Assembly (NCBI GenBank): GCA_963776795.1
Contig: CAVZNX010000014.1
Location: 94,044-158,043, forward strand
Length of the DNA: 64,000 nt
Source of the DNA: an uncultured Chloroflexia bacterium
GTDB lineage: Bacteria; Chloroflexota; Anaerolineae; Anaerolineales; UBA4823
Direction of reading: 5' to 3'
Below, piece after piece: positions 29,207 to 51,294 of this stretch (position 1 is the first letter of the stretch; each line of letters begins with the position of its first letter). Below the pieces are notes generated by a model. It was not told where the DNA came from, did no database searches, and was given only the letters and a program-made list of their open reading frames with translations. A program made the position numbers and the translations under genes.

Positions 29207-29677
29207 TTATGCCATTACCTGCTTCATTTGCCTTCTCTTATTTGCGTGAGATTCTTGAATAAAGGATTGATCATGAGCGCTCATATCATATTTTTGTTTA
29301 TCAAGCATCTCCAATCCTCCCCAAGGTAATCCCAGGAAAGAAATATGCTTGATATCAACAAGCGATCGACCATTATGGTTTACAAGCTTACCCTGGGCGA
29401 TCACATACGGACGCGCCTGATTTACCAGGATCGCTGGCTGGTCGACTGAGACGCTGGCGATCTCGATCAAACACACACCAGCCTCGATCAAAGGCTTTTC
29501 TTTGACCTTTCGCATGATATCGATGATCACTTCTGCGGGACGACCAGATACTACTACCGGATGGTGATCATCTAAAATTACCTCTGATGCCATCACGGTC
29601 AGTCGTGTGAATCCTGCCTTCAACGACCAATACTGACGTTCGATTTGCCACGACAGTCCTTGCAGACTCGACCTCAA
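29207..29677 (-). CDS. Hypothetical protein (last gene of the island; the 3' part is already AT-rich)
   Basis: 156-aa ORF. An internal start at MASEVILDD (29593) is possible. No recognisable motif. Confidence 0.4.
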   Translation of the reverse strand: MRSSLQGLSWQIERQYWSLKAGFTRLTVMASEVILDDHHPVVVSGRPAEVIIDIMRKVKEKPLIEAGVCLIEIASVSVDQPAILVNQARPYVIAQGKLVNHNGRSLVDIKHISFLGLPWGGLEMLDKQKYDMSAHDQSFIQESHANKRRQMKQVMA

Positions 29678-29720
29678 ACCAGCCTTGCAGGATGCATAAA
29701 TTCGTGTAAGTCGGCATTGC

Positions 29721-30266
29721 TTAACCTCCCACGAATTCCCCGAATGGTAATTCTTCTGTTTTGGTAGAATTGAGTGATTTTATAAACTCATTCACCTCTT
29801 GAAGGCGACGTGAAGCGATGCGATGACTTTCCAGCAACGCCTGATACGCCTGGATGAAGTGGGCGCGATCTGCAATAGGATTCTCTGAATTGCATAATGA
29901 AGTCCAGCCCAAACTATCAACCACCTTATCCGTGATCGGATTTGAAAATTTTGGCCTGTTCAGGTAACCTACGCGCTGCATCTCCTCTTGAACCTCCGCC
30001 CAGGCTTCATATCCGGATTGGACAGGATCTGCAGCTTCAATAATATTGAATGCACCCATCCGTAATTCAGCGATCGATGGGAAGAACGAAGAACGGCTGA
30101 TGTGATCCAGGACCGATTGGCCAAGGATATTCCCTGGGATATCATCCAGCAGTCTGACATACATCTCGATCGCTGTACTGCTTAACTGGAAACTTGGGTA
30201 AATATCTCCTAATATTTTTAATACCTGAAGGACTTCAATCTCGGTCGCCACTCGGGATGCCTCCAT
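29721..30266 (-). CDS. Phage G39P-like helicase loader/inhibitor domain protein
   Basis: The N-terminus EIEVLQVLKILGDIYPSFQL...YVRLLDDIP...SSFFPSIAELR matches my recollection of the G39P loader-family pattern (YPxF ... LxD ... FPSIAEI). It lies in a replication gene block. Confidence 0.5.
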   Translation of the reverse strand: MEASRVATEIEVLQVLKILGDIYPSFQLSSTAIEMYVRLLDDIPGNILGQSVLDHISRSSFFPSIAELRMGAFNIIEAADPVQSGYEAWAEVQEEMQRVGYLNRPKFSNPITDKVVDSLGWTSLCNSENPIADRAHFIQAYQALLESHRIASRRLQEVNEFIKSLNSTKTEELPFGEFVGG

Positions 30267-30633
30267 GCTTCTCTATATATGCACGAATACCAGCAAATGC
30301 AGCAGGCTCCCTTGTACTTTTCCTGGAAACCTGTCCTTTGGTTCCTGTTTTTCGTGGCTGCCCTGGCTGTTTCCGTTCCTTTCCATGTTCAGTCCAGTCA
30401 TCCAGCACCGCAGCTGCGTAGTGCAGGATATTGCGCGGATCGGCTACTCCCAATGCGCAGGTCAATGCTTCCGCCAGCCACTCACCACCACTGGAACCAC
30501 TTGCCCGGGCTGCTGGATCACAGCGATCCGCCATGATACGAAACCGCAACCGGGTGTCTGTATTGATCTCACGTCCGCTGCTTTGATAGACCTTGATCGC
30601 CTTGATAAAGGTCTGGTTCAAATCGATACTCAT
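30235..30633 (-). CDS. DnaD/replisome-organiser C-terminal-like domain protein
   Basis: ...PRNILHYAAAVLDDWTEHG resembles the DnaD-domain signature (I.Y...IL..W...G). It overlaps both neighbours (65 nt and 32 nt), so it may be part of a frame-shifted fusion. Confidence 0.45.
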   Translation of the reverse strand: MSIDLNQTFIKAIKVYQSSGREINTDTRLRFRIMADRCDPAARASGSSGGEWLAEALTCALGVADPRNILHYAAAVLDDWTEHGKERKQPGQPRKTGTKGQVSRKSTREPAAFAGIRAYIEKHGGIPSGDRD

Positions 30634-31006
30634 CTGATCGCTTCAGAGGACCTGTTCCATCAAGGGCTTCCGGCTTCCGGGAAAACGGCGGATGGTTTTC
30701 CGGACTTCGGGTTTCCTGCTTCTGTTGTAACAGGTCACGGGCGATCGCTGCACAATGTGTGAAATATCTCGGCGGTGACGAGCGTTTGAAAGCCTCATCA
30801 ATGCCTTCCAGGATATTCTCGAATGTAAACCCAGCCTGGACCAGCTTTTTAAGCGCAGCTCTCTCCTTGATCGTTGGTGTGTAATCTGGATCGCCCTTAC
30901 TCCAGGCGAAATACGAAAAAACACTGCTGTCGATCGGAGTGGAGAGCTCATCCTCTTCTTTATCTTCTAATCCATTTATGTACTTTTTTGATACCTGGTG
31001 GTGCAC
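30569..31006 (-). CDS. DnaD-like domain protein (replication initiation/membrane attachment family)
   Basis: KERAALKKLVQAGFTFENILEGIDEAFKRS...YFTHCAAIARDLL. The tail after ~QQKQ is low-complexity, which suggests a frame problem. Confidence 0.4.
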   Translation of the reverse strand: MHHQVSKKYINGLEDKEEDELSTPIDSSVFSYFAWSKGDPDYTPTIKERAALKKLVQAGFTFENILEGIDEAFKRSSPPRYFTHCAAIARDLLQQKQETRSPENHPPFSRKPEALDGTGPLKRSDEYRFEPDLYQGDQGLSKQRT

Positions 31007-31059
31007 TTTTTGAACACAGCTGCCATTGGATGTGCCATCTTTTATTTCACGGTGACCGA

Positions 31060-31599
31060 TTAATTAGCATCCATTTCACCTTTTTTCTCAACGTGTTGGG
31101 AAGTGCGAATAATGTTCTTTTCGAGATACTGGTCCTGGATAGCACCCGAAATTAGATAGGCTTTCGTCCCGTTGAAACGGCCATGCGAATCGCGAAATGA
31201 GGTCAGTTCCTTTGGGATCATGAGGACCGAGATAGATTGGTTTTCAGCTAAATTGCGTATGGCCCGCGCGATGGTTGCCCTGCTCATGCCTAACTCCTCT
31301 GCCAGCGCAATATCACTCACTCTGGCATAAAGCCTGCCTTCGTCCTCCTGAGTAACCATATTTAAACCGAGCAGCAACGCCAGATCCTCTCCTTTCAAAG
31401 GCCGTGCATGCATGGCGATCGCCAGCAAGATCACAAAGTCATTCCCGCGGCTGGAAAATTGATCGCGGTACCATCGGCTGGTGATCGCCTCGGAAAAGAG
31501 CCGCACGGATACCGAGATGCTTTCACTCCAGGGAGAAAGTTCACTCTCCTGTACCACGGATTGCTGGAATTCGAACTGCAGAACGCGCTGCTGGGTCAT
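31060..31599 (-). CDS. HTH DNA-binding protein (replication-initiator/organiser-like)
   Basis: 179 aa. [26 protein letters not shown]. Its start ATG overlaps the dnaB stop (ATGA). Confidence 0.45.
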
Positions 31600-32925
31600 T
31601 GGGATATCTCCTGCCTTGAAGGATCTTCAAATCTCGCAAAATGCCGATGAAAAACTAACCTTGCTACCCCGGTCGGCCCATTGCGGTGTTTTGCAATGAT
31701 GATCTCCACATGATCTCGGGAGCCCAAGCTCATCCGGATAGTAGATGAACATCACGAGATCAGCATCCATCTCGATGCTGCCCGATTCTCGCAGGTCACT
31801 CAGCAGCGGGTGCTTGTCAGCGCGCTGTTCAACCGCCCTTGAGAGCTGCGCAGCAGCCAGCACCGGAACATCCAGCTCGCGTGCCAATGTTTTCAGCTGG
31901 CGGGTTATATAGGAGACTTCCTGGACGCGGTTGTCAAAACGCTCTCCTGCACTGACAAGCTGGAGATAGTCAACAACAACCAGATCAAGTCCCTTTCTAA
32001 AGAGAGCTTATGGCAGGCTGAGCGGATCTGATTGATACTGACGATTGAGGTGTCATTCACGAACAACGGTACTTTCTGCAGCAGTTCGATCGCCTCACCA
32101 TATCGGCGCTTTTCATCGACTTCCAATTTTCCTGAACGCAGGCGTTGGACATCCATGCTGATCTCCTGGGCGATCAGGCGCTGGGCAAGCTGCTCACCTG
32201 ACATCTCCAGGGTGAACAAGGCGACTCTTTTTCTTTCTTTGACGGCCACATTCCTGATGATGGAAAGCAATAAGCTGGTCTTGCCTGTCCCAGGCCTGCC
32301 CGCAATGATCCCCAGGTCTGAAGCCTGCAGCCCACCAACCAGTATGTCCAGTTCACAAAATCCAGTTTGCAAACCGGGCTTGTCAGCTTGACCGGGATGA
32401 TTGATGACATTTTCATCCACGGTACTCAAGTATTTCAGATAGAGACTTTATGCCAAGTGAAGGCCTGCCCTGGCGGATTGATGAGATGGTCCTTTCGGTC
32501 TCCTGGATCACCTCTTCCATATCCGTGCCCTTGCTGTGAGCAAGCTTGGCGATACGGCTGGCGGCTTCAAGGATGTGTCTACGCGTGGCCATATCCTTGA
32601 TGATCTGTGCATACGCACCTGCATGCAGGGAGGTTGGAACCTGGTTGATCAATCCGGTCAGGTACGCTGTACCACCAATCTCATTAAGTTTCCCTGCCTG
32701 GTCAAGCTCGTCCGTGATCGTCAGGAAATCGAGCGGAATTTGGCGCTCCTGGAGCCGGGTAATGGCCTCCCAGATGAAGCGATGACGATGGATATAGAAA
32801 TCACCTGGCTGGATCACCTGGGCAACCGAGTGGTATGCATCTGGATCGATGAGTACCGCCCCGATGACAGCCTCTTCAGCTTCAACGCTATATGGGATGG
32901 ATTTCGGCTTCGGTTCTGATTCCAT
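31596..32925 (-). pseudogene. dnaB: Replicative DNA helicase DnaB, about 3 frame shifts
   Basis: N-terminal domain IPYSVEAEEAVIGAVLIDPDAY (32413..32925). Walker A IIAGRPGTGKTS (31905..32429). [13 protein letters not shown]...[19 protein letters not shown] (31627..31887). A hand-translated tail [13 protein letters not shown] ends at the TGA at 31596-31598. Confidence 0.85.
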
Positions 32926-33447: not shown

Positions 33448-33533
33448 ATTTTACTGGTCAGCAAGCGACTTTCCAATCACACATATCCCCCACCTCATTA
33501 CTTCCTGTCCCCTGGTTTCTGGACACATGTCCC
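33448..33533 (-). promoter_or_regulatory. Sigma70-like promoter (TTGGAA-N17-TAAAAT) with upstream operator TGTCCC-N8-TGGACA-CA-TGTCCC
   Basis: On the minus strand, -35 is at 33471-33476 and -10 at 33448-33453 with an exact 17-bp spacer. The operator is at 33506-33533. The same architecture occurs at 38363-38428. Confidence 0.45.
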
Positions 33534-33646: not shown

Positions 33647-34116
33647 CTATTTATCCAGCCATTTGATCAGTTCGATCCAGGTATATGTCCTTACCCACCC
33701 ACTATCAAGCAGGTATTGGCTGATCCTGGATCCTTTCTTCAGGGACCTCGACAAGCACCGATTCTCTATGCGCTCCAGCCAGCCAGTCTTCTGCGACCCG
33801 GACCATTCTGGGGTAGAAATCCGAGCTCAGCATCTTCGATCACTGGCAGGAGCAGGGTACCCTTGTTCTGGTAACGCTGGTAGTCCGCCCTCAGGAACCC
33901 GATGATCCTTCCATCGACCAGGACAGCTTTTATCCACCAGGAAAATCCCGTGTAGGTAAGGAAGGACCTCTGCAAGATCGACAGAAAATAGCGGGAATCC
34001 AGACTGCCATTTACCTGAAGCACCAGGGGAGAAGTCGTCCTGCTTTCGATCGCGTGGAATACTGCCCGGTCCCGGCGGTTGACAGGACGAGTGGTGAAGC
34101 GATCATTAACCTTCAT
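33647..34116 (-). pseudogene. GNAT-family N-acetyltransferase-like protein, about 2 frame shifts
   Basis: ORF 33766..34116 (VLVDGRIIGFLRADY...) continues in two other frames by hand translation: FYPRMVRVAEDWLAGAHRESVLVEV, then SQYLLDSGWVRTY...WLDK, with the stop at 33647. Confidence 0.35.
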
Positions 34117-34612
34117 GATTGCCTCTGATCGGATGGCAGTCGGTGCTCATAGACAGAATAGCGGTTATACTCGGAAAATCCTTGCTTTCGTAAATTGCCC
34201 AGCGAGGCGAGGTTCGTATCAAGTACCTGGGCAGTCACGTAGGGATAGCCCAAGTTCAGAAAGCCTTTCCAGCCGCTTTTCAAGGAGTGCCTGACCAACC
34301 CCGCGCCTGCGATATTCTGGGTCGACCATCAGGTTGGTGACGGCCATCTGCTCCTTCCTGCCGATATACATCCCTCCCCCGGCCACCTTCCCCTCGACTT
34401 CTGCAACATAACCTTCCCACTTGATGCCCATCAAGGCGGTCAGCAGCTTATAGGGGATCATCCTCCAGCGGAATATCCTGCGGGTCTCCCGTTCGAAATC
34501 ATCAGGGCTCATCCCGGCTGCCCTGGTTTCTTCAGCAAAGGCCACCCGCGAGATCCGCAGGAACTCATCCACATCGGTATGGGCGAACTTACGTATAGCT
34601 GATATTTTCCAT
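34113..34612 (-). pseudogene. GNAT-family N-acetyltransferase, frame shifts
   Basis: Acetyl-CoA-binding motif MVDPEYRRRGVGQALLEKRLE in ORF 34219..34572. The C-terminus YVTAQVLDTNLASLGNLRKQGF is in ORF 34113..34298. The probable ATG at 34612 is one frame off. Confidence 0.65.
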
Positions 34613-34648: not shown

Positions 34649-37021
34649 TCATGCCCTGACTCGCACCAAAATAGCCGTCCCTGATCCTGGAGAAGCAACA
34701 ATGCTCATCTCTGCCCCGATCATCGCAGCCCGTTCTTTCATCCCAAGCAGCCCGTAGTGGACGCCTCCCCATAGCCCTCCCTGCTCCGACATACCGATAC
34801 CGTTATCTTCGATGCGGACTTCAAGAATACCGTCGTCCCGCTGAGCCGTGACGGTGACATGGTCAGCCTGAGAATGTTTCAAGGCATTGGTAAGCGATTC
34901 CTGGACGATCCGGTAGATCGATGTCGCCTGTTCGTCAGTAAGCTTCAGATCCCCACTCAGCTTATTCCGCCACAGGATGGCGGTATCGTCTGCAGCGATG
35001 TCTTGCATGCTACTGATCAGATCCTGGAGGGCCAGGACCAACCCACGGTCAAGCAAGCTCGAGCGCTGTGCCTTGATGGTCTGCCTGAGGTTGGCGATCG
35101 CCTGGTCTATGAAAGACACTGTCTCCCGGATCGGACCTGGCCAGGCGCTGTTTTACAAAGAACAGGTTCTGCAAGACCGTATCATGCAGATCACGGGCGA
35201 CCTTTTTCCGCTGGTCCTCATCCGAACGCACCATCTGCTGGGTTAATCCCCTCAGTTCTTCCGCATGGATGATATTGGCGATGGTCAAGGCAGCCTGCTG
35301 GCTGACCGTCTCGAGGATCTGCAGATCCTGGCTTGAATAGACTTCTCCTGATGACCGCTCTCCAAGGATCAGCACGCCATACAGGATATCCTGGTGAAGG
35401 ATCGGCACCAGAACCTGGGCCCAGGAATATGCATCCCAACGCTCAAAAGATCCCTGGCTGACCGTATTCCACAGGCTTTGGGCAAGCACAGGCTTGCGGT
35501 AACTGACCAGCGCATTACAGACTTCATCATCCGGAAGGACCGAAAAAGACCCGGCATCCAGACCCTGGCTTTCGAAGTGGTCGCCCGATGCTAAAAGCAG
35601 CTCACTCCTGGAGATGTTCATCTTCTCCGGCAGCATACAGGTCAGCAGGTCAATAAAGTCCTGACGATCAACGGTCTGGGCCAGGCGGCTGGACAGGTCG
35701 GAGGTTACCGAGGTATAGTCATAATAGCTGTCCGTACAGCACCCGGTCGACCTGCATCTGCACCCGTTTCTGCAAGCTGGCTGAGGGTAAAGCGACCAGC
35801 ACACACAGCAGAGATCCTGCGATCACCAGTTGGACCGGCTGGTCAAACAACCTGGATAGTACGCTTAACACACAGAAGGACAGAAGCAGGACGGATAGGA
35901 TCAGTAAGAACAACACCAGCACCCGGTTGATAATAAGATCGACCTTGAGCAGCTTCCGCTGGTAGATCACATAACCATATGCGATCGGGATAAAGATCAG
36001 GGTCAGGCTGCTGATATTGCTCGGAACCAGGATGTATTCGCTCCCAGCTCCAAATACCAGGCGGGGAAAGCCGCTCAATACCAGGAAAGGCAGGAAACCG
36101 ATCAGGGTTCCAAGGAAGACAATATTGATCTGCCTTTTGATATCGCCATCCCTGGTAAGGAAGCGGTTCTTCAGCAGCAAGCCGATATCCACCAGGATGG
36201 ATAAATAAAAGACAATACTGATCACCCTGAACATGGTGGAAGAGGCTGGATTTTGGTTGGCGACTTCCAAAGAACCTGTTCCACGATATAGGCGATCCCC
36301 AGCAAAACCGAAACAGCAAAGGCACCATAGATCAGCAGGCTGCGAGTCCTGGATGAAAAAGAAGGCACCGGGAAATACAGGTGGGCAGCGGTGGCAAAAA
36401 AGATCGCGGCGGTAAAGGAAAGCATCGCCACATTGGGGGCAAACCAGGCGCAGCTCCAGTAACCAGGCCCCGTGGCTGTTAATGCCACACCTGCCAGCAC
36501 CCAGGCGATGCCGACCAGGCGCCCTCTGACCTCGGAAGCTGGAGAAAAGAACAGCAGGACCAATCCAAGCAGGGTAATGATCAGGGAAAGCACCTGAACC
36601 GGGAGGACTTCCAGCAGGTAATTGGGATATTGAAAATAGCTACCCACCCGAACAGGGATCGAAAGGGTTGCCCCACCTCGTTCGATCACATATACGCTCT
36701 GTTTCGCCTGCGCCCTTTGGTCGATGGACCGGGACATTTAGATCTGAAATGATATTTCCATCGATCGAAAGGACCCTATCCCCCACCTGCTAATCCAGCC
36801 TGCTCTCCAGGCCCACCGGGATCAAGGCTTGATATCACCGCGGAGTTCTGCTGGGAGTCCTGGTAGTCCAGCCACACCCCAGTGACCGGCACGAAGATGT
36901 AATAGGCTGCGTTATAGAACACGACCGCACAAATGGCCAGGAGAGCAAATCCGACCAGGAAACCGTTGCTGGTAACGAAACGGATCAGCCTGGGATAGCC
37001 TGGTTCAGGAGGGATCGCCAT
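34649..37021 (-). pseudogene. Sensor histidine kinase: TM anchor, PDZ-like domain, multi-TM block, GAF, HisKA_3, HATPase_c; about 4 frame shifts
   Basis: 36776..37081 has LDPGGPGEQAGL (PDZ-like). 36222..36737 and 35719..36270 are polytopic. 35049..35804 has a GAF-like region plus the H-box ARDLHDTVLQNL. 34649..35119 has the N/G boxes QESLTNALKHS...IEDNGIGM...GLLGMKERA. The start at 37021 overlaps the upstream gene by 17 nt. Confidence 0.75.
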
Positions 37022-37979
37022 CCGGCTCCTCTGACTGGCCAACCCGGTGCCGCTCCAGGAACAGGGCAGGGATCTTTTCAAGGACTTGTTTTTCCGGAGA
37101 ATCCGGAAGGAAGCTCAGCTGCTGCAGGGCACGGCCCTTCCACTCCAACAGCAAGGCGGATATGGCTGTGATAATATCTTTCCGGGTTAGTAGCTCGACC
37201 AGCTGCCCCCTGGTGCTGACGTCCAGGTTGCGAAGCTCTTCCTCACCTTCTGCCAGCAGGTACAGCAGGACTGGCAGGCTGATCTCATGGCTCGCTTCCC
37301 CGTCGGCCTGGCTGAAGATATCCCGGCAGTCATCGAAAAGCTGAAGCATGACCCCAAGGGAAGTGCCATACTCAGCCAGGGCGTGAATCGATCTTTCATC
37401 TGTGGTACCGGCAGCCGCACCAGCCCCCGCCCCTGCCATAAACACGCTGCCTGATTTTAAAATGACCGCTTCCCAGTAATTCATCAACGCCTGTTCCACG
37501 GAAAGCGGCTTATGGAGCAGATCCTGGTGCTGCCCGAACGAAGCCTTGAAACCTGCCTCGGCAAAGATCTGGACCGCGCGGCATGCCCCGCGGGGATCAG
37601 GGATCAAGGACAGGTCGTGAAATGCCTTGAAGACCAGGGAGGTGGCCAGGTTCATTGCTTGTTCCTTCGTTGGCAAGGCTGGCTCCGGCATGAACTGCCT
37701 ATCTTCCAGGTCGTCCAGGATCTCCGAGGCAAGATTGGCGGTGAACCAGGCGCTTGCCACACAGTTACCAGGTTCAGGAGTCCCACCAACTGCCACGCAG
37801 GCGATCACCGGAAGGGCGATCTGCCAGGCAGGTATCTCAGTGATGTGTCCAGCGATCAGCTGAGAACACTCTGGAAAGGTCAGGGCAAGCTCGCAGGAGG
37901 ATATGCGCCTGACTACAGGCTCCGAATAGATGCGAAGGATTTGATCTAGGTCGCGATCATCCACGGTGAATATCTTCAA
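37005..37979 (-). CDS. Polyprenyl synthetase-like (class I isoprenoid synthase fold) protein
   Basis: 324 aa with a TTG start. Two Asp-rich motifs sit in the expected order and spacing: EILDDLEDRQ (FARM-like) and LQLFDDCRDIF (SARM-like). Confidence 0.5.
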   Translation of the reverse strand: MKIFTVDDRDLDQILRIYSEPVVRRISSCELALTFPECSQLIAGHITEIPAWQIALPVIACVAVGGTPEPGNCVASAWFTANLASEILDDLEDRQFMPEPALPTKEQAMNLATSLVFKAFHDLSLIPDPRGACRAVQIFAEAGFKASFGQHQDLLHKPLSVEQALMNYWEAVILKSGSVFMAGAGAGAAAGTTDERSIHALAEYGTSLGVMLQLFDDCRDIFSQADGEASHEISLPVLLYLLAEGEEELRNLDVSTRGQLVELLTRKDIITAISALLLEWKGRALQQLSFLPDSPEKQVLEKIPALFLERHRVGQSEEPDGDPS

Positions 37980-38125: not shown

Positions 38126-38308
38126 TTAAGTGATTGTCCAGGCTACCTTTTTATCGATCTCCCCTTCGGCCATAACGCTCAGGATGGTCATTGCCACAGC
38201 AATGACCGCAGGTGATGTAAGCCGCCGGGGCAGCTGTGCGTCTTTTACTGCCTGCTTGCACGACGCGGTGAATGACTTTGCCAGATCACTGATCTTATTC
38301 TGCTCCAT
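38126..38308 (-). CDS. Small hypothetical protein (60 aa) with one hydrophobic segment
   Basis: GAGGAGG RBS 6 nt upstream of the ATG at 38308. First gene after the predicted promoter. No homology inferred. Confidence 0.4.
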   Translation of the reverse strand: MEQNKISDLAKSFTASCKQAVKDAQLPRRLTSPAVIAVAMTILSVMAEGEIDKKVAWTIT

Positions 38309-38362: not shown

Positions 38363-38428
38363 ATTTTAGGTACCCAACCCCAAGCTATCAATCACCAAGT
38401 GTCCCGTGATGGGCGGGACAAATGTCCC
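38363..38428 (-). promoter_or_regulatory. Sigma70-like promoter (TTGATA-N17-TAAAAT) with adjacent operator TGTCCC-N9-CGGGACA-AA-TGTCCCG (perfect 7-2-7 palindrome)
   Basis: On the minus strand, -35 is at 38386-38391 and -10 at 38363-38368. The palindrome is at 38414-38429, with an extra half-site at 38400-38405. It lies between the response-regulator gene and the small-ORF/polyprenyl/kinase operon. Confidence 0.5.
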
Positions 38429-41641: not shown

Positions 41642-42604
41642 CTAGAGTATCGCCAGGCTGGCCAGGTAATCCTCCAGCCCCTTGAACGAACCCTGGTTGA
41701 TGCGCCCGGTATGGTCCCGCCCACACACGATATCCGCCCAGGAAAGCTTTGCCTGCTGCATGACCCCATCGAGCGTCCTGGTCGTGTTCGATTCGCATTT
41801 TCTGGCCCAGTTGAGGAGTGTGGCCGTGTCGATACAGCCAGGCATCTCTCCATTGGCCATCAACCGGCGGGTCTCCTGGGCCAATTTCACAAGCGATTGG
41901 CTCGTGCCACTGTCCAGGCGGGCAGCCTCCCGCCGCAGCAGGGACAGCTCATCGTCATACTCCAGGTAGTCAAACTCGATCACGGTATCGAACCGCCTGC
42001 GCACCGCTGGGTCAAGGTCGTAGACCTGATAAAGGCGGCCGAAGTTGCCCGCGGCTACGATACGCAGGGTTTTAACCGGGCAGAGCACGACCTCACCTGT
42101 CAAGGGGACCTCAACGACATAGTAGCAGCCTGGCTGATGGACATCCAGTCCCATCTGGCGGCAGGCCTCCCCGGTTTTGGGATTCATCAGGCCCAACAGG
42201 ATGTTCAGGTGGGGACGAGGGATGCGGTTCACCTCATCGATGAACAAAAGGACAGGCTCGAGATTGGCCTGGCGCATGGCGCGCAGCAGGGGTCCATCCA
42301 CCCATTTCCGGCTGCCATCTTCCTGGGGCAGGATCGCCCCAATGAAGTCCAGATCGGTCAGCCCTTCCTTGCCTTCGATCACCACCAGGAAAAAATCCAT
42401 ACTCGCCACCACCTGGTGGAGCGCATACGTTTTTCCTGATCCCGTAGGCCCGGCCAGGAGGATATTATCCCCAGAACCGAGAGCCGCTGCCAGGGCACCC
42501 ACCTGCCATCCAACAAAACCGCTGGCTTGACTAGGCTGTTCGGCCTGTGGCGAAGCAACTCTCTGGTTTGGGATCATCTCCTTCAAGCAGTGTACGCAGT
42601 GCAT
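41642..42604 (-). CDS. AAA+ ATPase, MoxR/CbbQ/NorQ-like (AAA_5)
   Basis: Walker A ILLAGPTGSGKTY. Walker B LLFIDEVNRIPRPHLNILLGLM. DPAVRRRFD sensor/arginine region. 320 aa. Confidence 0.8.
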   Translation of the reverse strand: MHCVHCLKEMIPNQRVASPQAEQPSQASGFVGWQVGALAAALGSGDNILLAGPTGSGKTYALHQVVASMDFFLVVIEGKEGLTDLDFIGAILPQEDGSRKWVDGPLLRAMRQANLEPVLLFIDEVNRIPRPHLNILLGLMNPKTGEACRQMGLDVHQPGCYYVVEVPLTGEVVLCPVKTLRIVAAGNFGRLYQVYDLDPAVRRRFDTVIEFDYLEYDDELSLLRREAARLDSGTSQSLVKLAQETRRLMANGEMPGCIDTATLLNWARKCESNTTRTLDGVMQQAKLSWADIVCGRDHTGRINQGSFKGLEDYLASLAIL

Positions 42605-43212
42605 CCGGATCGGTCAACACCCCGACATTGGTGGGGTGCAGCTCAAGAGCAGCGCAGGGGTACTGCGGACCGATCTGCAAGCCTTCCAACCGGCTGTTGC
42701 CAGGTTCAGGCAGCGCATTTCCATAACGCAGGAAATAGTACAGCTCATCGGCTGCCCGGCATAATGGCTCCTTGATCTCGCCTGCGCGGCCGTGGCGCTG
42801 GTATGCTTCCAGCAGTTCAAGATAGGAGAGCCTGAAATCCATTGCCGTTCCAGGATCCGCCAGGGACTGGATGATCGCCAGAACGCCCAGGTGATAGGTG
42901 ACCTTGCTTTCATCACCATGCGGGACACCACAGTGGGAAGTAGACCAGTCCAGCCAGCATTCGGCGGTGGTGCCGGGGCGGGTGTGCGAGCGCACGATCG
43001 CCCGGACAGATGCACCTGAAGTGGATACTATGGGCTTCCAGTACGCAGCCGTCCAGGGTGCTGAGCAAGGCACGCACCAGGATGGCTGATACAGCTGCCT
43101 TGCCCGTACGATTTCGCCGGGCCGTCCAGCTGTGTTCCTCTCCACCGCGCAGCCAGGGGATATGGTCTTCGACCAGCGGTGTACGTTTTCGAAAAAGCAA
43201 TAATGTGTCCAT
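42531..43212 (-). pseudogene. Hypothetical protein, operon partner of the AAA+/vWA pair; one probable frame shift near 43000
   Basis: The N-terminus from ORF 42913..43212 (MDTLLLFRKRTPLVEDHIPWLRGGEE...) reads as protein-like. The C-terminal two-thirds come from ORF 42531..43220 (HLGVLAIIQSLADPG...YLELLEAYQRHGRAGE...). GGAGG RBS before 43212. Confidence 0.4.
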
Positions 43213-43247
43213 ACAGACATGCCTCCAGTAGATTAGGTTCGGGAGGG

Positions 43248-43347: not shown

Positions 43348-43854
43348 TTACCAGATGTCTTCTGAAAGCGGCTCTGGAGGCGGCAGACCATGCCGGGCGG
43401 CATGCTTTTTAGCGAACTGCCACCTCAAGACAGCTACCATGCGCTGCCAGTAGTGGGCTGAGCCACCCGCATCACACCGCCAGCCAGCACCGCGCTGGGG
43501 ACTGCCCAGGGAATTATCGAAGGATACCCCTGCATGGCAGACCGGGCAGCGGGCAGGGATGACCGGGTAATATCCTGGCGGAGGGTCTGGGGCCTGTTCG
43601 CCTCCGGCAGCCAGGTTGGCTCGAACCACATCCGCTGCCGGGCAAAGCTCACCCAGGTAGCAGGTACAGGTGCCAGCCTTGCTGACGAAGTGGACCCTGG
43701 GCTGGACATGGCCGCCAAGATCCACGGCATAAAAATAACCGCTCACGGACACGCTGGCTTCCAGCATGGCCCTGTGCAGGGCAAGCCGGTCATACCTCAG
43801 CTGGAAAGCCCTCACCGGTCCGGTTTTGTCATTTTCTTGTGGGTTTGTTTTCAT
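43348..43854 (-). CDS. Cys-rich Zn-finger protein (SWIM-like CxC..C element plus C-terminal zinc-ribbon-like CPVCH...RCD)
   Basis: GTCTCYLGELCPAADVV lacks the canonical SWIM His. CPVCHAGVSF...WRCDAGGSAHYW follows. The ATG at 43854 has a GAGG RBS; the listed ORF start at 43935 is probably spurious. Confidence 0.4.
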   Translation of the reverse strand: MKTNPQENDKTGPVRAFQLRYDRLALHRAMLEASVSVSGYFYAVDLGGHVQPRVHFVSKAGTCTCYLGELCPAADVVRANLAAGGEQAPDPPPGYYPVIPARCPVCHAGVSFDNSLGSPQRGAGWRCDAGGSAHYWQRMVAVLRWQFAKKHAARHGLPPPEPLSEDIW

Positions 43855-43946
43855 GATGATTGCCTCGGATGCCAGGAAACAGGCGGGCAGGATGTGCGCG
43901 CCTGATCCTTTTTTTGGAGATCGCACCGTCCGCACAAATCACGGGA

Positions 43947-44600: not shown

Positions 44601-44947
44601 GGTGTATTACTCCTTATGAGTGTGTTGTGAAAAACATTCGATGGATCCGGGTAACCGGTGTACAGGCATTGGCCGTCCATTACCAGGCCAATGCAGGTGG
44701 ATCGCGAGCCTGGGGGTGCGGTCTGGGCAGGGAAAAATGGACCTGCTGCCCTGCGAAGAGCCCGCACCCCGCCAACCCGCAATGATGATTGAGCAGGAGT
44801 AGGCAGAGACCAGGGCTCTACTTGCAGCCTGTGAAAATATGGGCTGGTATCTGCGCCTATCCATTCAGAAATTTGCTCTTGATCTCTCTTGCAGAAATAA
44901 GGAGGGAACGGCATCCAGCCATTCCTTTGGTGCAAGCGTACTCTCGC

Positions 44948-45145
44948 TCACTCCTCTGAAAAAGACTGGTCGTCTTGATACTCCTGAATGGTCTCCTGGA
45001 TGGAAAGCCATTCAGGCATTCGCCTGGGCCTGAAGTATGCCAGGATGTTCTTCCCGGATCGAAGCATCAAAGTGAGCGCCAGGGTCCAGAAGCAGGCGAC
45101 CAGAATCCCTGCCAGGCAGATGAACAGCATTACGGCTTCTCTCAT
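44948..45145 (-). CDS. Small single-pass membrane protein (65 aa)
   Basis: GGAGG RBS 6 nt before the ATG at 45145. MREAVMLFICLAGILVACFWTLALTLMLR. The longer listed ORF (to 45274) would run through a terminator hairpin. Confidence 0.45.
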   Translation of the reverse strand: MREAVMLFICLAGILVACFWTLALTLMLRSGKNILAYFRPRRMPEWLSIQETIQEYQDDQSFSEE

Positions 45146-45237
45146 GGTTGCCTCCAGTGTATTTTTGATATCTTTTTTTACGGTACTGCTGCGAATGGGA
45201 GCATCCCATTCGATGCAGCACAAAATACCCCTTTTCC

Positions 45238-45527: not shown

Positions 45528-46316
45528 TTACCGTTTGGTGTACTGGATCAGTTTTTGGGCGACCAGGCACGTCTGGGCATAGGCGGCCCAGACCTCATCG
45601 GGAGCCTGGCCATCGGATAGGTTCGCCAGCACGCTGGCCTGGTGGGCTGCGATCAGGAAGGAACGCAGGTTCTCTGAATAGATACGGCTTCCCAGGGAAC
45701 CTGATACCCGGATGCGATCCTTAAGTTTCAGGATGACAGCCCGCCCGTCCACCCGCTGGTCCAGGAACTGGACCGTCACATAATGGGGTGTCCGCCGTTC
45801 CCGCCCATGGTTGCCAGCTGCAGGGGTGGAGGCGGTGTGCCGGTCGTAAACGGCCAGGCGTAGAAAAAGGTGCCCACCATATTCCCAGACCCTGGCCACC
45901 ACGCCATCGACGCGGGCGAAACTTGCAGGTGAAAACCTGGCCGGATCCAGCAGCTCCAGGGTCTCCGGGACGACACAGGTCACGGAGCGTTTGACCTGGG
46001 CGCTCGAGGCAGCCAGCAGCTCAGGGATGCGTTTGACAAGCTCCTCTTCCCGGGCTTTGAGCAGAAAATCGCGCAGGGTCTCCCACTGGGGGAGGTCATC
46101 CAGGTAGCCAGTGATGTGTAGCGCGTCGCCTTTCAGCAGGCTGACATCCCGCCCACCGACCTGGCCTCCAGGCAGCCTCAGGGTCAGCCGTGGGTCGACC
46201 TGGTTTGGGATGGTGTCCAGCTCTTTTTCTGCATCCGTTGCACCGGTATCGATACGGGCGAAGACATCCCCGGTCGAACGGGACCAGATCTTGGTCACAT
46301 GGCCTGCCAGGTCCAC
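45528..46316 (-). CDS. Double OB-fold SSB-like protein
   Basis: 262 aa with a GTG start. An AAGGAGG ~70 nt upstream suggests a frame-shifted longer N-terminus. Second half: HYVTVQFLDQRVDGRAVILKLKDRIRVSGSLGSRIYSENL, an SSB-like pattern. The first half is analogous (LAGHVTKIW...LLKGDALHITGYL). Confidence 0.4.
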   Translation of the reverse strand: MDLAGHVTKIWSRSTGDVFARIDTGATDAEKELDTIPNQVDPRLTLRLPGGQVGGRDVSLLKGDALHITGYLDDLPQWETLRDFLLKAREEELVKRIPELLAASSAQVKRSVTCVVPETLELLDPARFSPASFARVDGVVARVWEYGGHLFLRLAVYDRHTASTPAAGNHGRERRTPHYVTVQFLDQRVDGRAVILKLKDRIRVSGSLGSRIYSENLRSFLIAAHQASVLANLSDGQAPDEVWAAYAQTCLVAQKLIQYTKR

Positions 46317-46604
46317 CTGGTTGCAGTCATAGCGTTCGGGGGCAGCAGATGGTAATAAATCGTGGGGTGATCAAATCAAAATACCTCCTTGGTGGATCCC
46401 CAGGCAAGCCTTTTCATTGATCGACCTGCCTGGGTCTCAAAAGTAATAATGAACATTACAATGATTGCAATCGCTTGAAAACGGTCTCAATTGTTAAGGT
46501 TCGTGTCATCCTGTAAACAGGTCCACTTGATCAGTGACCTGCCAGATCCTTGAGAGAGGGAAGGCAGGTGGCCTTCCCTCAGGCACGCTGCGCAAGCGGA
46601 CGGG

Positions 46605-47871: not shown

Positions 47872-49161
47872 CTACCACTCTTCTATCCATAACGGCGTCT
47901 CCTCGCTAATGTCGGGAACTTTACAGGCGATCAACGTTTCAAGGTCGGTAGCGATCCCATGCAGGTTTTTCAGTTTACAATCCCCGACCAGCCGCGCCCG
48001 GCGCTTCGCATTTCGGGCACACAGCGCGACCCGGCCTTGGAGCTGGGAGAGGTTGCGCCATTTTGCATCCAGTTCCTTGCTGGAGAGCTCCACCTCCACG
48101 AAGGTCGTCTCTGGCGGGCTGCCAGGGAAACAGCGGCTGACAGAGACGTCCGGAACCGCATTGGTCTGCACCGTCTCCAGTTTCGGCAGCACACCCACCT
48201 GGTAGCCGCGGAATCGAGCGTGCATGGCGAAGATCATCAAGGCCAGGGTGTGCTGGGGATACTGCTCACCCTGGTGGTAGCGGTTCACGCGCTGGCGTTC
48301 TGTTTCCACAATATTCCAGCCGAGCACCTGGCACAGCTCACGCCCGTCCTCGGTCAACTGCAGCATCGCCAGCGACGTGTTCGGCGCGCTCATCTCCAGG
48401 ATCTCGATGCTCACGAAATTCTTTGCGACCATGTTGTCATACACCCTCCTCAACGCCCCGGTGCGAGAGCTGATCCCTTCGACCAGGCTGATCAGGTGAT
48501 CGATCTCCAGGCGGACATCCAGGCCACGCGCCAGCAGGTAGACCACGTACAGCTTGCGGCGTACCTGGCGCTCCTGGTCGGTCCCGGTCATCCTGGGTTG
48601 CTGAAAATGGTTCTGGAAACGCGCCGGGAGGGTCGAGGGAAGCCTGAGGCTGCGCAGTTCAGCTAGCAGCTCATGGTGGATGAAAGCCTGGCCCATCGTA
48701 TCGATCCTTTCCAGCCCAGGAGCCTGAGGACTCCGGAGCACAGGATCCTGATCCAGGGGATCTGGTGGCTGATCACCGGTTGGCTGAACGCTACCTATCC
48801 AGCTGTTATTGCTAACGACCGGCTTATGATCACCGGATACCAGATGGGCTAGTTTTTCCTTGAGGGCCTGGTTCTCGCGTGTCAACCGTTCGAGTTCAAT
48901 GGGCGCGCTTGCATTCCATCCTTCCAGACCTGGTGCTACAGGCAGGCTGTTATAGAATCTCCGCCACTCATCAGGCCCCCAGCTTTCCGGGGCATACGGG
49001 TCGGCGCGCCTGATCTCTTCGATCTGTGGACCCGCAAGCCGTTGGGCCTGCTCGGTCAGGACACTGCGGAATTCCCGCAGGGCATTTTCGGCCTGCTGGC
49101 GGAAATGGCGTTCGGCGTCCAGCAGGTCATCCAGGGCATTGCTGCGCACATCACCAGGCAT
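47872..49161 (-). CDS. Coiled-coil / wHTH / PD-(D/E)xK-like nuclease-fold protein (replication-relaxation-like?)
   Basis: 429 aa. GAGG RBS before the ATG at 49161. Predicted wHTH region RKLYVVYLLARGLDVRLEIDHLISLVEGIS...LQLTEDGRELCQVLG. Then HTLALMIFAM...VPDVSV...TFVEVELSSKE, which could be a D...ExE/K nuclease motif. Confidence 0.35.
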   Translation of the reverse strand: MPGDVRSNALDDLLDAERHFRQQAENALREFRSVLTEQAQRLAGPQIEEIRRADPYAPESWGPDEWRRFYNSLPVAPGLEGWNASAPIELERLTRENQALKEKLAHLVSGDHKPVVSNNSWIGSVQPTGDQPPDPLDQDPVLRSPQAPGLERIDTMGQAFIHHELLAELRSLRLPSTLPARFQNHFQQPRMTGTDQERQVRRKLYVVYLLARGLDVRLEIDHLISLVEGISSRTGALRRVYDNMVAKNFVSIEILEMSAPNTSLAMLQLTEDGRELCQVLGWNIVETERQRVNRYHQGEQYPQHTLALMIFAMHARFRGYQVGVLPKLETVQTNAVPDVSVSRCFPGSPPETTFVEVELSSKELDAKWRNLSQLQGRVALCARNAKRRARLVGDCKLKNLHGIATDLETLIACKVPDISEETPLWIEEW

Positions 49162-49670
49162 GGACCGCCTCGCATCCGGGGAGGAGTTTTCTGTTCATCG
49201 AAGAGGGCTCTAACATACGCAGAGCTAGGCACAGGGGTTCCTTGTGGCGCTGGTGGTGCAGACAGGCTGTGCAGCGCTTCATCCAGGGCTTCCAGAGCAG
49301 ATGCCCTTGTTGCGGCTCCGACGGACCAGGCGCTGACCGCCTGTGCCGCGAGGGCCAGTTTTTCCCGTTGATACTCCAGGGAAGGCTGGCCCTCGCTTGT
49401 ATGGCGCAGGATACGCTCCACAGCCAGCTGGGCGCGCACCGGGTCAGGCCCGGCATTGAGCAGTTCAGCCAGCGTTTCAGCTTCCACCTGCAGGTCCTTG
49501 AGCTCTCTCCCGTACAGGCGGCGTGCCTTCAGGACCTGCCATTCTGAACGGGTCAGGAGCCGGTCGCCTGAAGGCTGGTAGGCATGACCCAGGTAGCCCA
49601 GGCAAGCCAGGAGGAGGATGGCTGCCAGGCAGACCAGGGGAATGCGGAGTTCAGAAAGGTCAAGTTCCAT
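49056..49670 (-). CDS. Single-pass membrane protein with an Ala-rich helical ectodomain
   Basis: The ATG at 49670 (MELDLSELRIPLVCLAAILLLACLGYL) is 5 nt after the upstream stop. The 3' end overlaps the next gene by ~105 nt, so the true stop may differ (possible frame shift). Confidence 0.35.
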   Translation of the reverse strand: MELDLSELRIPLVCLAAILLLACLGYLGHAYQPSGDRLLTRSEWQVLKARRLYGRELKDLQVEAETLAELLNAGPDPVRAQLAVERILRHTSEGQPSLEYQREKLALAAQAVSAWSVGAATRASALEALDEALHSLSAPPAPQGTPVPSSAYVRALFDEQKTPPRMRGGPCLVMCAAMPWMTCWTPNAISASRPKMPCGNSAVS

Positions 49671-49675
49671 ACGGT

Positions 49676-50122
49676 TCAACGAAAGCGAAGGGAGGTGGCA
49701 GCAAAAGCCGATAGCGTGACGGATGAGCGTCCGCCGGCTGCGCTGAACAATACTGGCACCTCTGCAGACGCAGAACACAGCACCTGGTGGTTAATATCAT
49801 CAAGTGTGAGACCGTAAACCGGAGCGAAGGCCATGCGGGTGCGCTCGTTCAGCGTGGCAAGAAAAGTGTTGAAAGCCACTTCGTACACTTCACCTTCATT
49901 CCCGATCTGGGTCTGGCCAGTATTGGTGTATGCCAGCCTGTCGCCAGCTGTCCAGGCAGCCGCTTCACAGGCGGCGTCCGTGGCCGTTTGCAGCCTGCCG
50001 CGGACATATAAAAGGCGGGTGCCATCGACCACGAGCAGCATGAGCGGCAAGAACACGGTCGTCAGGAACGCAGCGGTCCAGGCCAGTGAAGAACCCTGCT
50101 CACTACGCTTTGATCGCCTCAC
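49676..50122 (-). CDS. TadG/TadE-G-like (Tad_N) pseudopilin-like protein
   Basis: QGSSLAWTAAFLTTVFLPLMLLVVDGTRLLYVRGRLQTATDAACEAAAW matches the Flp-pilus TadE/G-like N-terminal pattern. Confidence 0.55.
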   Translation of the reverse strand: MRRSKRSEQGSSLAWTAAFLTTVFLPLMLLVVDGTRLLYVRGRLQTATDAACEAAAWTAGDRLAYTNTGQTQIGNEGEVYEVAFNTFLATLNERTRMAFAPVYGLTLDDINHQVLCSASAEVPVLFSAAGGRSSVTLSAFAATSLRFR

Positions 50123-50562
50123 CAGCCCTCCTGCCGGAAATAAGAACTGGCTGAGCTTGTGAAGGTCCCCGGTGTGCCCACCCCAAAGATGCTTGCCAGG
50201 CCCCCGAAATAATTGGGAACGGAGTAGCTCACCACAACGACCATCAGGTCACCAGGCTCGCCACCGCCTGATACGCTGACAGAGTAGGTCCCGACGGGGA
50301 TCGCCTCCAGCATCTGGTAAGCGCTGGAGGCAGCGACTCCCGAAGCATTGGACTGGGCTACGGAACCCATGCGTGCCCCATAGTTGGCCGCATTCCCGGC
50401 GTTCACTGCCGCGAACCCGAGGATCGCCAGGTTGACCAGGCCCATGGAGATGAGCAGGAGTACAGGCAGCACCAGGGCGGCTTCGTCCAATTCAGCACGG
50501 CGGTCAGCTAGAAGTTTGCGCATGGGTTCCAGGCTCTCGATGCTAGATCGCCGCAGCGACAT
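50119..50562 (-). CDS. TadE-like pseudopilin
   Basis: RRAELDEAALVLPVLLLISMGLVNLAILGF. 4-nt overlap with the downstream gene. Confidence 0.55.
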   Translation of the reverse strand: MSLRRSSIESLEPMRKLLADRRAELDEAALVLPVLLLISMGLVNLAILGFAAVNAGNAANYGARMGSVAQSNASGVAASSAYQMLEAIPVGTYSVSVSGGGEPGDLMVVVVSYSVPNYFGGLASIFGVGTPGTFTSSASSYFRQEGW

Positions 50563-50692
50563 CCTGAAAGGTCTGGGCTACCTTGGCACCCAGGGGAGAC
50601 AGGCCGATGATGGCTGCGATAACGAACAGTGCGATCAGCAGGGCTTTTTCATCGAGTTCAGCTGAGGTATCTTTAAATATTCGTTTGAGCAT
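50543..50692 (-). CDS. flp: Flp-family type IVb pilin
   Basis: MLKRIFKDTSAELDEKALLIALFVIAAIIGLSPLGAKVAQTFQDVAAAI. Flp-like length and layout. AAGGAG RBS upstream of the ATG at 50692. Confidence 0.6.
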   Translation of the reverse strand: MLKRIFKDTSAELDEKALLIALFVIAAIIGLSPLGAKVAQTFQDVAAAI

Positions 50693-50812
50693 TTTTCGAT
50701 AAATTCTCCTTATTTTTGTTTTGAGCTGCATTCAATGTAAATACAGCTATTCAGGTACGGATGGGTAGTCGTTAGGGTATTTTTCCTATTTGATCCAGTA
50801 CACCTCCTTTCA

Positions 50813-51294
50813 TCAGGCGGCCAGCCGCTGGGTGATGAGCACCCCGAGCTGGCCGATCGTGAATAACCCAATACCCAGGGCAAAGCCGGGCACACCGGCA
50901 TAACGATTGGAGTGATCGTGATGAATGACCATGACTACAAAAACATACACCAGGGCCCCAGCCCAGGCAGCCAGGACAAGTATGGGGTTGATAAGGGCCA
51001 GGACCACCAGGATCTTAAGATCAGCACCACCCATAAGGTGGTAGTGCCAGGCAACCACGAGGGCAAGGCTAAAATGAGGAAGTGCATTAAAAATCCTGTC
51101 ACCGATCCGCTCCGCACCTCTTTCATCAGCCAACCCGCCAGGAGAACTGCTGGTATGGCTGGCAGGGTCAGCCAGTTGGGCACATGATGAGAATGAATAT
51201 CGAAAACCGCACAGGCACATAACCAGGTGATCACAAGCGTGGAGATCGAAAGAGAAAGGGATGATGCTGTTACATGCATATCGTAATCATGCAT
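50813..51294 (-). pseudogene. Prepilin peptidase, A24 family (CpaA/TadV-like), one frame shift
   Basis: 50935..51294 has AVFDIHSHHVPNWLTLPAI, carrying the first catalytic Asp. 50813..51220 has GGADLKILVVLALI, carrying the second catalytic Asp. Confidence 0.6.

Follow-up and report, generated by a model that had tools for sequence, protein, structure and literature searches.

Composition and borders of the island

The stretch of DNA analysed here, referred to as the window, comprises 64 kb from an uncultured Chloroflexia bacterium (contig CAVZNX010000014.1, positions 94 044 to 158 043). At positions 29207-51345 it contains a GC-rich island of pilin, DNA-handling, two-component and replication genes. 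All coordinates are positions in the 64-kb window, and L-numbers (L003, L007 etc.) denote relative loci from other contigs. GC content was profiled at 1-kb steps, the borders were examined at 300-bp resolution, and GC at third codon positions (GC3) was computed per block. The 1-kb profile gave a GC of 0.34-0.49 for the flanks, with a mean of ~0.42, whereas the island was two-tiered, at ~0.50 between 29.3 and 40 kb and ~0.59 between 40 and 51.3 kb. An earlier reading by a model, made from the letters of this DNA (hereafter the sequence-only reading), had placed the compositional switch at ~29.2-29.4 and ~51.3 kb, which our profile confirmed, but had put the flanks in the 'high 30s' and the interior at a single ~60 %, neither of which was recovered. 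At the left border GC rose from 0.33-0.36 (28.9-29.3 kb) to 0.44-0.49 (29.2-29.65 kb), with the step at 29.2-29.4 kb, and at the right border it fell from 0.55 (50.95-51.25 kb) to 0.40 (51.25-51.55 kb), with the step at 51.25-51.4 kb. The left block had a GC3 of 0.60 and the right block one of 0.69, whereas the flanking genes had 0.38 and 0.44. The GC excess of the island over its flanks is codon-level, and its composition is foreign to the host. Together with the gene content, this break in GC3 bore out the suggestion of foreign DNA equipped with its own replication and recombination genes. The GC steps coincide with the first and last conserved genes of the unit, at the 5' end of a prepilin peptidase gene and the 3' end of the gene p146, and DNA similarity to relatives begins within the peptidase gene and ends at ~29310 in p146.

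Conservation and distribution of the unit

Every window gene between 29207 and 51345 was found to have a syntenic orthologue, at 42-88 % identity, in independent Anaerolineae metagenome contigs. This synteny places all genes of the unit on the minus strand, as had been read from the sequence. The order of the right half was fixed in relatives (peptidase A24, Flp, TadE, TadE, p168, p429, Rad52-like, ob284 and p65), and L007 extended it through ssb217, p157, an AAA_5 gene (523 aa), its 524-aa partner and a response regulator. Contigs with a homologue of the helicase loader supplied the left half, in the order XRE, response regulator, p60, polyprenyl synthase, 790-aa kinase, GNAT, DnaB, p454, loader and p146. 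Genes beyond the unit varied by locus, with at least five right-flank and at least three left-flank contexts.

The GC step was also seen in relatives. Flank GC of 0.41-0.49 was accompanied by 0.54-0.58 in the unit (right block) of L005-L007, and flank GC of 0.42-0.51 in L071 by 0.56-0.59 at the core and 0.51-0.54 further on. L024 had flanks of 0.35-0.47 and a GC of 0.61-0.67 over most of the core, which by itself forms the GC-rich patch at that locus. Loci from GC-rich hosts (the L070 lineage and the distant L040, L044 and L057) displayed ~0.58-0.63 throughout with no step; GC-rich carriers therefore exist and are possible donors.

The window-type unit was sparse: among 5.8 billion proteins, the loader and the close relatives of p429 formed only ~57-59 clusters at 90 % identity. 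Searching JGI metagenomes with a p429 profile added 60 loci. The six-gene core remained linked in every one of the 26 longer loci, even where p429 identity fell to 31 %, and the p429 gene adjoined the pilin genes in every relative. Distant relatives carried a fuller tad locus upstream of the pilin genes, followed by the block of p168, p429, Rad52-like and ob284 genes. This fuller locus (L031 195-7865; L040, L042, L044, L055 and L062) comprised a ParA-like TadZ, a T2SSE (TadA) ATPase, two ~300-aa membrane proteins, an ICMT/PEMT-like methyltransferase and an 800-950-aa Big_13 (Ig-domain) protein. The right module is widespread and the left module was found only in the window's subfamily, L071-type units being without it; the island is hence a composite, in which a GC-rich pilin and DNA-handling module of wide distribution is joined to a two-component and replication module. 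No relatives of p429 or of the Rad52-like family were found in 2.9 M IMG/VR contigs; p429 had no match in PLSDB and the Rad52-like protein none in 50,697 phage records.

Strain-level variation was observed at the island edge. L005 and L007, from the same ENA sample, were 94-98 % identical over the unit and the upstream flank, and L007 contained an extra insert of ~2.1 kb with an NTP_transf_5 gene just upstream of the peptidase.

Chromosomal setting

The flanking genes have ordinary chromosomal functions, and the island lies between an old yellow enzyme (OYE)-type oxidoreductase gene and a sugar epimerase/polysaccharide cluster. An NAD-dependent epimerase, a Wzy-type ligase and asparagine synthase fragments make up the left flank, and an OYE/FMN oxidoreductase, a ribulose-phosphate epimerase, a DeoR regulator and BtpA the right flank. 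The flank oxidoreductase was 73 % identical to a copy in an uncultured Anaerolineaceae metagenome-assembled genome. A Rad52-like protein 100 % identical to that of the window is recorded from a 206-kb contig (NCBI and ENA), and relatives of the unit were found within 257-kb and 665-kb contigs; the setting is therefore chromosomal.

ARAGORN found no tRNA in the window, an Rfam scan of 27-54 kb returned no family, and the island and its borders were free of tRNA and tmRNA genes. Direct and inverted border repeats were at the level of shuffled sequence, the longest common to both borders being 11 bp. The reported absence of a flanking tRNA gene and of direct repeats thus held. Beyond the first and last unit genes no conserved terminal DNA was detected in comparison with relatives. 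A 700-bp AT-rich non-coding spacer (51295-52003) separates the island's first gene from the oxidoreductase stop; it holds a perfect 14-bp hairpin (51553-51566 / 51576-51589) and has no similarity to the corresponding spacers of relatives.

Gene content of the two modules

The features of the unit are listed in Table 1. DnaB, the XRE regulator, the histidine kinase with its LuxR-type regulator, AAA_5, the two TadE-like proteins, Peptidase_A24 and the helicase loader, all named in the sequence-only reading, were recovered by Pfam or PHROGs. No Pfam, NCBIfam, PADLOC or PDB sequence family could be assigned to p429, the Rad52-fold protein, ob284, p168 or p454.

Table 1. Positions of the genes and non-coding features of the island, in order from the right border to the left, followed by the operator-like sites
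Feature	Position	Strand	Evidence and remarks
Prepilin peptidase (Peptidase_A24)	50813..51345	-	First unit gene, 1 frame change; PF01478 weak in window, clear in orthologues
Flp-like pilin	50543..50731	-	78-88 % identical to the 49-aa gene after the peptidase in L003-L007
TadE-like pseudopilin 1	50119..50562	-	Pfam TadE, E 4e-8; kept in all long relatives
TadE/TadG-like pseudopilin 2	49676..50122	-	Pfam PF13400 (Tad), E 1.6e-6
p168, membrane-anchored conserved protein	49176..49670	-	Synteny in 21 loci, always between pseudopilins and p429; no family match
p429	47872..49161	-	Model: coiled coil, disordered linker, PadR-like winged helix, PD-(D/E)xK-like alpha/beta domain
Rad52-fold single-strand annealing protein (predicted), 284 aa	46605..47459	-	AlphaFold2 (AF2) model, pLDDT 80, and Foldseek
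ob284, conserved 284-aa protein, possibly OB-fold	45528..46358	-	64-71 % identical to orthologues; called reading frame misses N-terminal ~20 aa
p65, small conserved protein	44948..45148	-	Last gene before the hot spot; tblastn to L007 p65
Hot spot, empty in window	44601..44947	.	~350 bp between p65 and ssb217; no remnant of the relatives' segment
SSB-like protein (ssb217), 217 aa	43947..44600	-	Pfam SSB 21.5 bits, E 2.6e-4, under cut-off of 26
p157, Cys-rich conserved protein	43348..43935	-	61 % identical to L007 12508-12981; no family match
AAA_5 (MoxR/dynein-type) ATPase with N-terminal extension	41642..43220	-	Pfam AAA_5, E 3e-17 to 4e-19; tblastn in three frames
524-aa metallopeptidase/vWA-like protein, HExxH and C-terminal DxSxS (MIDAS-like) motif	40058..41632	-	56 % identical to L007 14700-16274
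XRE-family helix-turn-helix (HTH) regulator	39390..39746	-	Pfam HTH_3/HTH_26, PHROG repressor families
NarL/LuxR-type response regulator	38458..39123	-	Pfam Response_reg and GerE; 76-85 % identical in L007-L009
p60, small conserved protein	38126..38308	-	58 % identical in L008/L009
Polyprenyl diphosphate synthase-like protein, two DDxxD motifs	37005..37979	-	Pfam polyprenyl_synt, E 4e-13; weak NCBIfam IdsA-type matches
Membrane histidine kinase (PDZ-GAF-HisKA_3-HATPase_c)	34649..37081	-	Pfam; ~790 aa in relatives, six pieces here, five frame changes
GNAT acetyltransferase	33650..34596	-	Pfam Acetyltransf_1; ~328 aa in relatives, fragmented by frame change
DnaB replicative helicase	31614..32925	-	Pfam DnaB and DnaB_C; three pieces here, 442 aa in relatives
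p454, winged-helix N-terminus and weakly DnaD-like C-terminus	30235..31599	-	Three pieces here; single 453-454-aa gene in L008/L009
Phage-type helicase-loader-like protein, 181 aa	29721..30266	-	PHROG 9804, E 1e-22; PHROG 2289 'helicase loader'
p146, last conserved unit gene	29207..29717	-	48-64 % identical to L008/L009 orthologues; one frame change
Operator-like palindrome GGGACATTTGTCC, site 1	38416..38428	-	Upstream of p60-synthase-kinase-GNAT operon, just downstream of response-regulator gene
Operator-like palindrome GGGACATGTGTCC, site 2, with downstream GGGAC half site	33521..33533	-	AT-rich spacer upstream of dnaB-p454-loader-p146

The window carries the subunit set of a tad locus, namely a prepilin peptidase, a Flp-like pilin and TadE-type pseudopilins; genes for the TadA ATPase and the TadB/TadC platform were absent from the window and from close relatives. 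Alignment of the peptidase to L007 by tblastn spanned 51345-50816 in two frames. The Flp-like pilin has a hydrophobic Flp-type N-terminus and no Pfam match, and takes its name from sequence pattern and position.

More than 120 homologues of p429 were collected, most of ~390-460 aa and none with a Pfam domain, and those with a source name were labelled Anaerolineales or Chloroflexi; at E <= 1e-3 the family comprised 660 clusters at 50 % identity. The AF2 model of p429 (pLDDT 81) was compared using Foldseek, which returned PadR regulators and, weakly, EcoRII/YaeQ (PDB), with uncharacterised Bacillus phage G gp146-like proteins (E 5e-6) as the best viral matches. Residues P337-D338, E356-V-E358, K362 and K367 were invariant or near-invariant, and this PD...EVE...K pattern recalls PD-(D/E)xK nucleases. 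On its model, p429 is a predicted DNA-binding, nuclease-like protein. Its gene had been offered as a candidate non-canonical recombinase; the model, with its winged helix and nuclease-like domain, matched no known recombinase fold, and this candidate was rejected.

The adjoining Rad52-like protein had no sequence match in Pfam, PDB or NCBIfam. Its model matched human RAD52 and yeast Mgm101 in the PDB (Foldseek, probability 1.0, E down to 1.4e-5). The earlier identification of a Rad52-like annealase is thereby confirmed for the N-terminal fold, by fold only, and annealing activity is predicted. Two SSB-like proteins had also been proposed, of which one, ssb217, retained a sub-threshold Pfam SSB match, and the other, ob284, had only insignificant matches of OB type (PriB/ssDBP/OB). 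Three of the 12 scanned sequences matched Pfam SSB at E <= 0.05, and neither ob284 nor ssb217 gave anything significant against the PDB. The AAA_5 gene is a single 523-aa reading frame in relatives with two frame changes in the window, and the 524-aa gene next to it has a double frame change that scrambles the middle of a single-frame translation. The description of this pair as AAA+/vWA was supported by Pfam for AAA_5; the vWA name is drawn from the DxSxS motif (DRSGSM), since there was no Pfam vWA match.

In the left module, two DnaD-like genes of the sequence-only reading proved to be one gene, p454, split by frame changes. It gave weak HTH matches and a weak DnaD-like match (PHROG 7498, E 2e-5), and displayed no detectable similarity to the replication initiation protein of a Moorella phage; p454 is a candidate replication organiser or initiator. 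The loader-like protein was 35 % identical to the Moorella phage protein that adjoins that replication initiation protein, and had 33 distant relatives in IMG/VR, six of which lay directly upstream of a DnaB.

No Pfam or PHROG match to a recombinase, transposase, terminase, capsid, tail, relaxase or type IV secretion system was found in the minus-strand open reading frames (ORFs) of the island, in agreement with the sequence-only reading. Ten unit proteins screened against PADLOC gave only two marginal AAA matches, and a defence island was rejected as an explanation.

An empty hot spot and the integrase of the family

Relatives fill the slot between p65 and ssb217 that is empty in the window. 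The cargo in the window's subfamily comprised variable genes, a tyrosine integrase, DUF6908, RadC and p199, several loci also having a PDDEXK_1 nuclease; this segment was carried by L003, L004, L014, L016, L018, L053 and L070. About a dozen loci, some with a p429 of no more than 31-39 % identity, had a tyrosine recombinase 1-9 kb downstream of ob284/p65 and in the opposite orientation. L014 and L070 (17915-19132) also had a DnaN sliding clamp gene in the segment, that of L070 between p199 and the PDDEXK_1 nuclease. The integrase was likewise lacking from L007 and L071. L003 and L004 were 96 % identical from pilin to p65, and the cargo beside their integrases differed. The contigs of relatives often break at this position, which is a hot spot of cassette swapping. 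In the stretch from p65 to the integrase 3' end, L003 (7938-8817) carried a Zn-ribbon protein, and L004 (5667-9367) DUF5677, a 257-aa protein and an ATPase_2/DUF234 protein. The same variable region of the distant relative L028 (14086-16128) contained a Mu-type transposase (rve and Mu-transpos_C) downstream of the ob284 homologue. The integrase, RadC and PDDEXK genes of relatives had no tblastn match in the window, and no direct repeats were found around the integrase segment of L003 or L070. The absence of an integrase noted earlier therefore holds for the window copy but not for the family, in which many relatives carry a tyrosine recombinase in the hot spot.

A shared palindrome

The exact palindrome GGGACAnnTGTCC occurred twice in the 64-kb window, compared to ~0.008 occurrences expected by chance, and both copies were intergenic, inside the island and at promoter-like positions (Table 1). 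It was also present at both equivalent positions in L008 (1689, 6649) and L009 (1708, 6643) and at the first position in L007 (17695), with no further match among the 72 loci. Both sites have a GGGAC/T half site downstream, and site 1 also has a TAnAAT hexamer. This arrangement suggests that one island-encoded regulator probably controls both the kinase and the dnaB operons via GGGACAnnTGTCC boxes; our best guess for the binder is the response regulator.

Other non-coding signals were seen nearby. A terminator-like hairpin, AAAACGGGCT...AGCCCGTTTT, lies at 33560-33620 just after GNAT in the minus-strand reading and was kept in L008 and L009, the spacer being otherwise unconserved. The AT-rich spacer upstream of dnaB (33200-33430) contains the GATC-containing inverted repeats AAGATCGAGATCA/TGATCCCGATCTT and AATGATCATGAT/ATCATGATCATT, which were not conserved in L008 or L009, and the non-coding gaps of the island showed no iteron array.

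Frame changes

Comparison with intact orthologues revealed at least 16 frame changes in the unit, with one in the peptidase, two in the AAA gene, two in the 524-aa gene, five in the kinase, one in GNAT, two in DnaB, two in p454 and one in p146. Genes of the flank were also broken (20255-24273 and 8500-14000; asparagine synthase, AMP-dependent ligase and glycosyltransferases), and relatives from similar assemblies (L006, L007 and L070) likewise contained frame-shifted genes. The load of frame changes belongs to the contig as a whole rather than to the island, in keeping with the earlier impression of a similar density inside and outside, and the changes look like long-read sequencing errors rather than decay.

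Origin and mobility of the island

On balance we lean towards the interpretation that the island is a horizontally acquired, now immobilised copy of an undescribed family of islands in the Anaerolineae (Chloroflexota). Horizontal spread is indicated because the GC3 excess persists in several low-GC hosts despite 55-85 % protein identity, whereas under vertical descent it should fade. The sparse distribution, the unrelated flanks, the mobile-element genes of relatives and the phage-type replication parts all agree with horizontal spread. The window copy is most likely fixed in place, because the whole recombinase segment is lacking and there are no att-like repeats. In complete members, the tyrosine recombinase in the hot spot, together with RadC, the PDDEXK nuclease and sometimes DnaN, would move or rearrange the element. 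The DnaB/organiser/loader set would replicate it, and the annealase and single-stranded DNA (ssDNA)-binding proteins would process its DNA. The response regulator, acting on the GGGACAnnTGTCC boxes, would switch on its own kinase operon and the dnaB operon upon a signal.

Several observations weigh against this interpretation. The window copy has neither integrase nor transposase, and neither flanking direct repeats nor a tRNA target. Neither an excision product nor an att site or empty site could be detected, the only close match to the oxidoreductase being a 3.4-kb contig that ends before the junction. The integrase of relatives sits in the middle of the unit and not at its end, and may belong to nested islets rather than to the island. 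The differing flanks could be the product of ordinary rearrangement, the copies being only 55-85 % identical. An intact DnaB orthologue scored 515 bits on TIGR00665, a cellular equivalog with a cut-off of 385, and fell under the phage_DnaB and SPI-7-type cut-offs. Several frame changes lie outside homopolymers and leave room for some real decay. Finally, the choice of the regulator that binds the palindrome is a guess.

The main alternative, which we consider unlikely, is a lineage-specific chromosomal cluster, vertically inherited and non-mobile, whose high GC results from a local process (e.g. GC-biased gene conversion at a recombination hot spot) or from selection, and whose flanks differ through genome shuffling. 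The lack of a mobility gene, att site or tRNA in the window copy and the cellular appearance of DnaB would fit such a cluster, as would the gene order, which is kept across 55-85 % identity to a degree unusual in a mobile element. The elevation of the right block above the left in GC is itself kept in relatives, and the unit of the L070 lineage is at host GC. However, vertical inheritance does not readily account for a GC3 excess of +0.2 to +0.3 in several low-GC hosts among copies that are deeply diverged, nor for the sparse distribution. The integrase, Mu-type transposase and swapped cargo within the units of relatives, and the phage type of the loader, also speak for the acquired island.

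A further, quite doubtful reading takes the core of Flp pilin, pseudopilins, p168, p429, Rad52-fold and OB-like proteins as the functional unit and the rest as baggage. A Tad-type pilus would import DNA or pass it on, and this DNA, once bound and cut, would be annealed into the genome with no need for the ordinary competence proteins. The core would be an unrecognised Tad-pilus-coupled DNA uptake or transfer and recombination system of the Chloroflexota, in the window's subfamily riding on a self-replicating island whose dnaB operon would be switched by a two-component signal via GGGACAnnTGTCC operators. This reading draws on the linkage of the six genes in 26/26 longer loci, on the position of the core directly after a TadZ/TadA-containing tad locus in distant relatives, on the L024 patch that consists of the core alone and on the clustering of RadC, SSB-like and PDDEXK genes with the core. 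Flp/Tad pili are, moreover, required for natural transformation in Micrococcus luteus (PMC4322843). Its support is nevertheless confined to gene neighbourhood; the unit showed no homologue of ComEA, ComEC or DprA, the TadA/B/C genes are missing from the window, and the annealase could equally serve replication or recombination of the element, as in phages.

It is highly improbable that the island is a phage satellite, of the type of the phage-inducible chromosomal islands (PICI), or a defective prophage that has kept its early replication and recombination region and is packaged by a helper phage. The satellite version had been raised in the sequence-only reading, and the XRE regulator, Rad52-type annealase, SSB-like protein, DnaB and phage-type loader do resemble a temperate-phage early region. 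However, Pfam and PHROG searches of the island ORFs returned no terminase, capsid, portal, tail, lysis or capsid-remodelling genes, and no packaging or capsid-redirecting genes. The viral collections lack the family-specific proteins, as described above, the window copy has no integrase or att site, and an element of 22 kb that includes a two-component system and pilin genes is unlike known satellites. A virus with an unrecognised capsid was rejected as well, with too few large ORFs left without assignment and no trace in IMG/VR.

With respect to other mobile elements, no Pfam family for a relaxase, coupling protein or type IV secretion system of a conjugative or mobilisable element was found in the island or among the examined genes of relatives. 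As for an integrated plasmid, Pfam gave no ParA/ParB in the window unit and p429 had no PLSDB match; the island may or may not be plasmid-derived. Lastly, an assembly chimera of low-GC and high-GC organisms, as feared earlier and as the sharp GC steps and the error-prone, frame-shifted assembly might suggest, is scarcely credible, because the passage from low-GC flank to GC-rich genes is repeated in several independent contigs and samples (with an identical order in L005-L007), the complete gene order and GC step recur across independent assemblies (L005-L009, L071 and L024), the steps coincide precisely with the outermost conserved genes on either side, and flanks and island share strand and reading direction.

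Comparison with known systems

Among type IV filament systems, tad loci are those transferred most frequently (PMC6668835), and they often reside on plasmids (PMC6668835, PMC5696575). The island resembles the tad locus or 'Widespread Colonization Island' (type IVc Flp pili) and the Flp-pilus plasmids of Cutibacterium acnes in having a prepilin peptidase, a Flp-like pilin and TadE-type pseudopilins on a moving block. Distant relatives of the island add the TadZ-like ParA and the TadA ATPase, whereas the window copy is without TadA/B/C. The pilin genes of the island are, in contrast to tad loci, invariably followed by the winged-helix/nuclease-like protein, the Rad52-fold annealase and the OB-like protein. 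To our knowledge, this arrangement of pilin genes with nuclease-like, Rad52-fold and OB-like genes is not part of described tad loci.

The XRE regulator, Rad52-fold annealase, SSB-like protein, DnaB-type helicase and loader with phage homologues are also shared with temperate-phage early modules, such as G38P-G39P-G40P of SPP1 with a Sak/Rad52-type annealase. The island differs from these in having no structural, lysis or packaging genes, in its family-specific proteins that are missing from viral collections, in its order of DnaB, organiser and loader, and in the two-component system and pilin genes inside the unit. Elements of the SPI-7, PAPI-1 and ICEclc type combine island-borne dnaB, ssb and radC-type genes with a type IV pilus set and a tyrosine integrase, and all of these gene types occur in the island family when relatives are counted. 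However, the island has no relaxase, coupling protein or type IV secretion system, its pilus genes are of Tad type and not type IVb, its host is a member of the Chloroflexota, and the DnaB orthologue scored 374 bits on the SPI-7-type model NF040583 against a cut-off of 655. PICI and other satellites are similarly compact islands with their own replication genes, a repressor-type regulator and no virion genes, but the window copy is larger, lacks an integrase, packaging or capsid-size genes and an att site, and is not in viral datasets.

The Flp-pilus transformation system of M. luteus likewise ties Tad/Flp-type pilus genes to DNA handling (PMC4322843). There the link is experimental and the usual com/dprA set is located elsewhere, whereas in the island the link is genomic only and the partners are Rad52-fold and nuclease-like proteins. 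A full-text literature search found no description of such an element, nor of DUF6908. The partnership of Tad genes with a Rad52-fold protein and the fusion of this module to a signal-controlled replication module appear to be new.

Significance

The mobile elements of the Chloroflexota are poorly charted, although the Anaerolineae are abundant in sludge, digesters and sediments. The family described here links genes for pilus subunits with single-strand annealing and ssDNA-binding proteins over deep divergence, keeps its high GC in low-GC hosts and, in the window's subfamily, places replication genes behind the same operator-like site as a sensor-kinase operon. It also illustrates that an island without an integrase can be recognised through comparison with its relatives. 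The window copy is itself an ordinary fixed island; the family to which it belongs is uncharacterised and raises the question of pilus-linked DNA processing in the Chloroflexota. If the link between pilus and DNA is functional, it would represent a new route of gene exchange, and if it is not, the family would still be a useful marker for horizontal transfer among the Anaerolineae.

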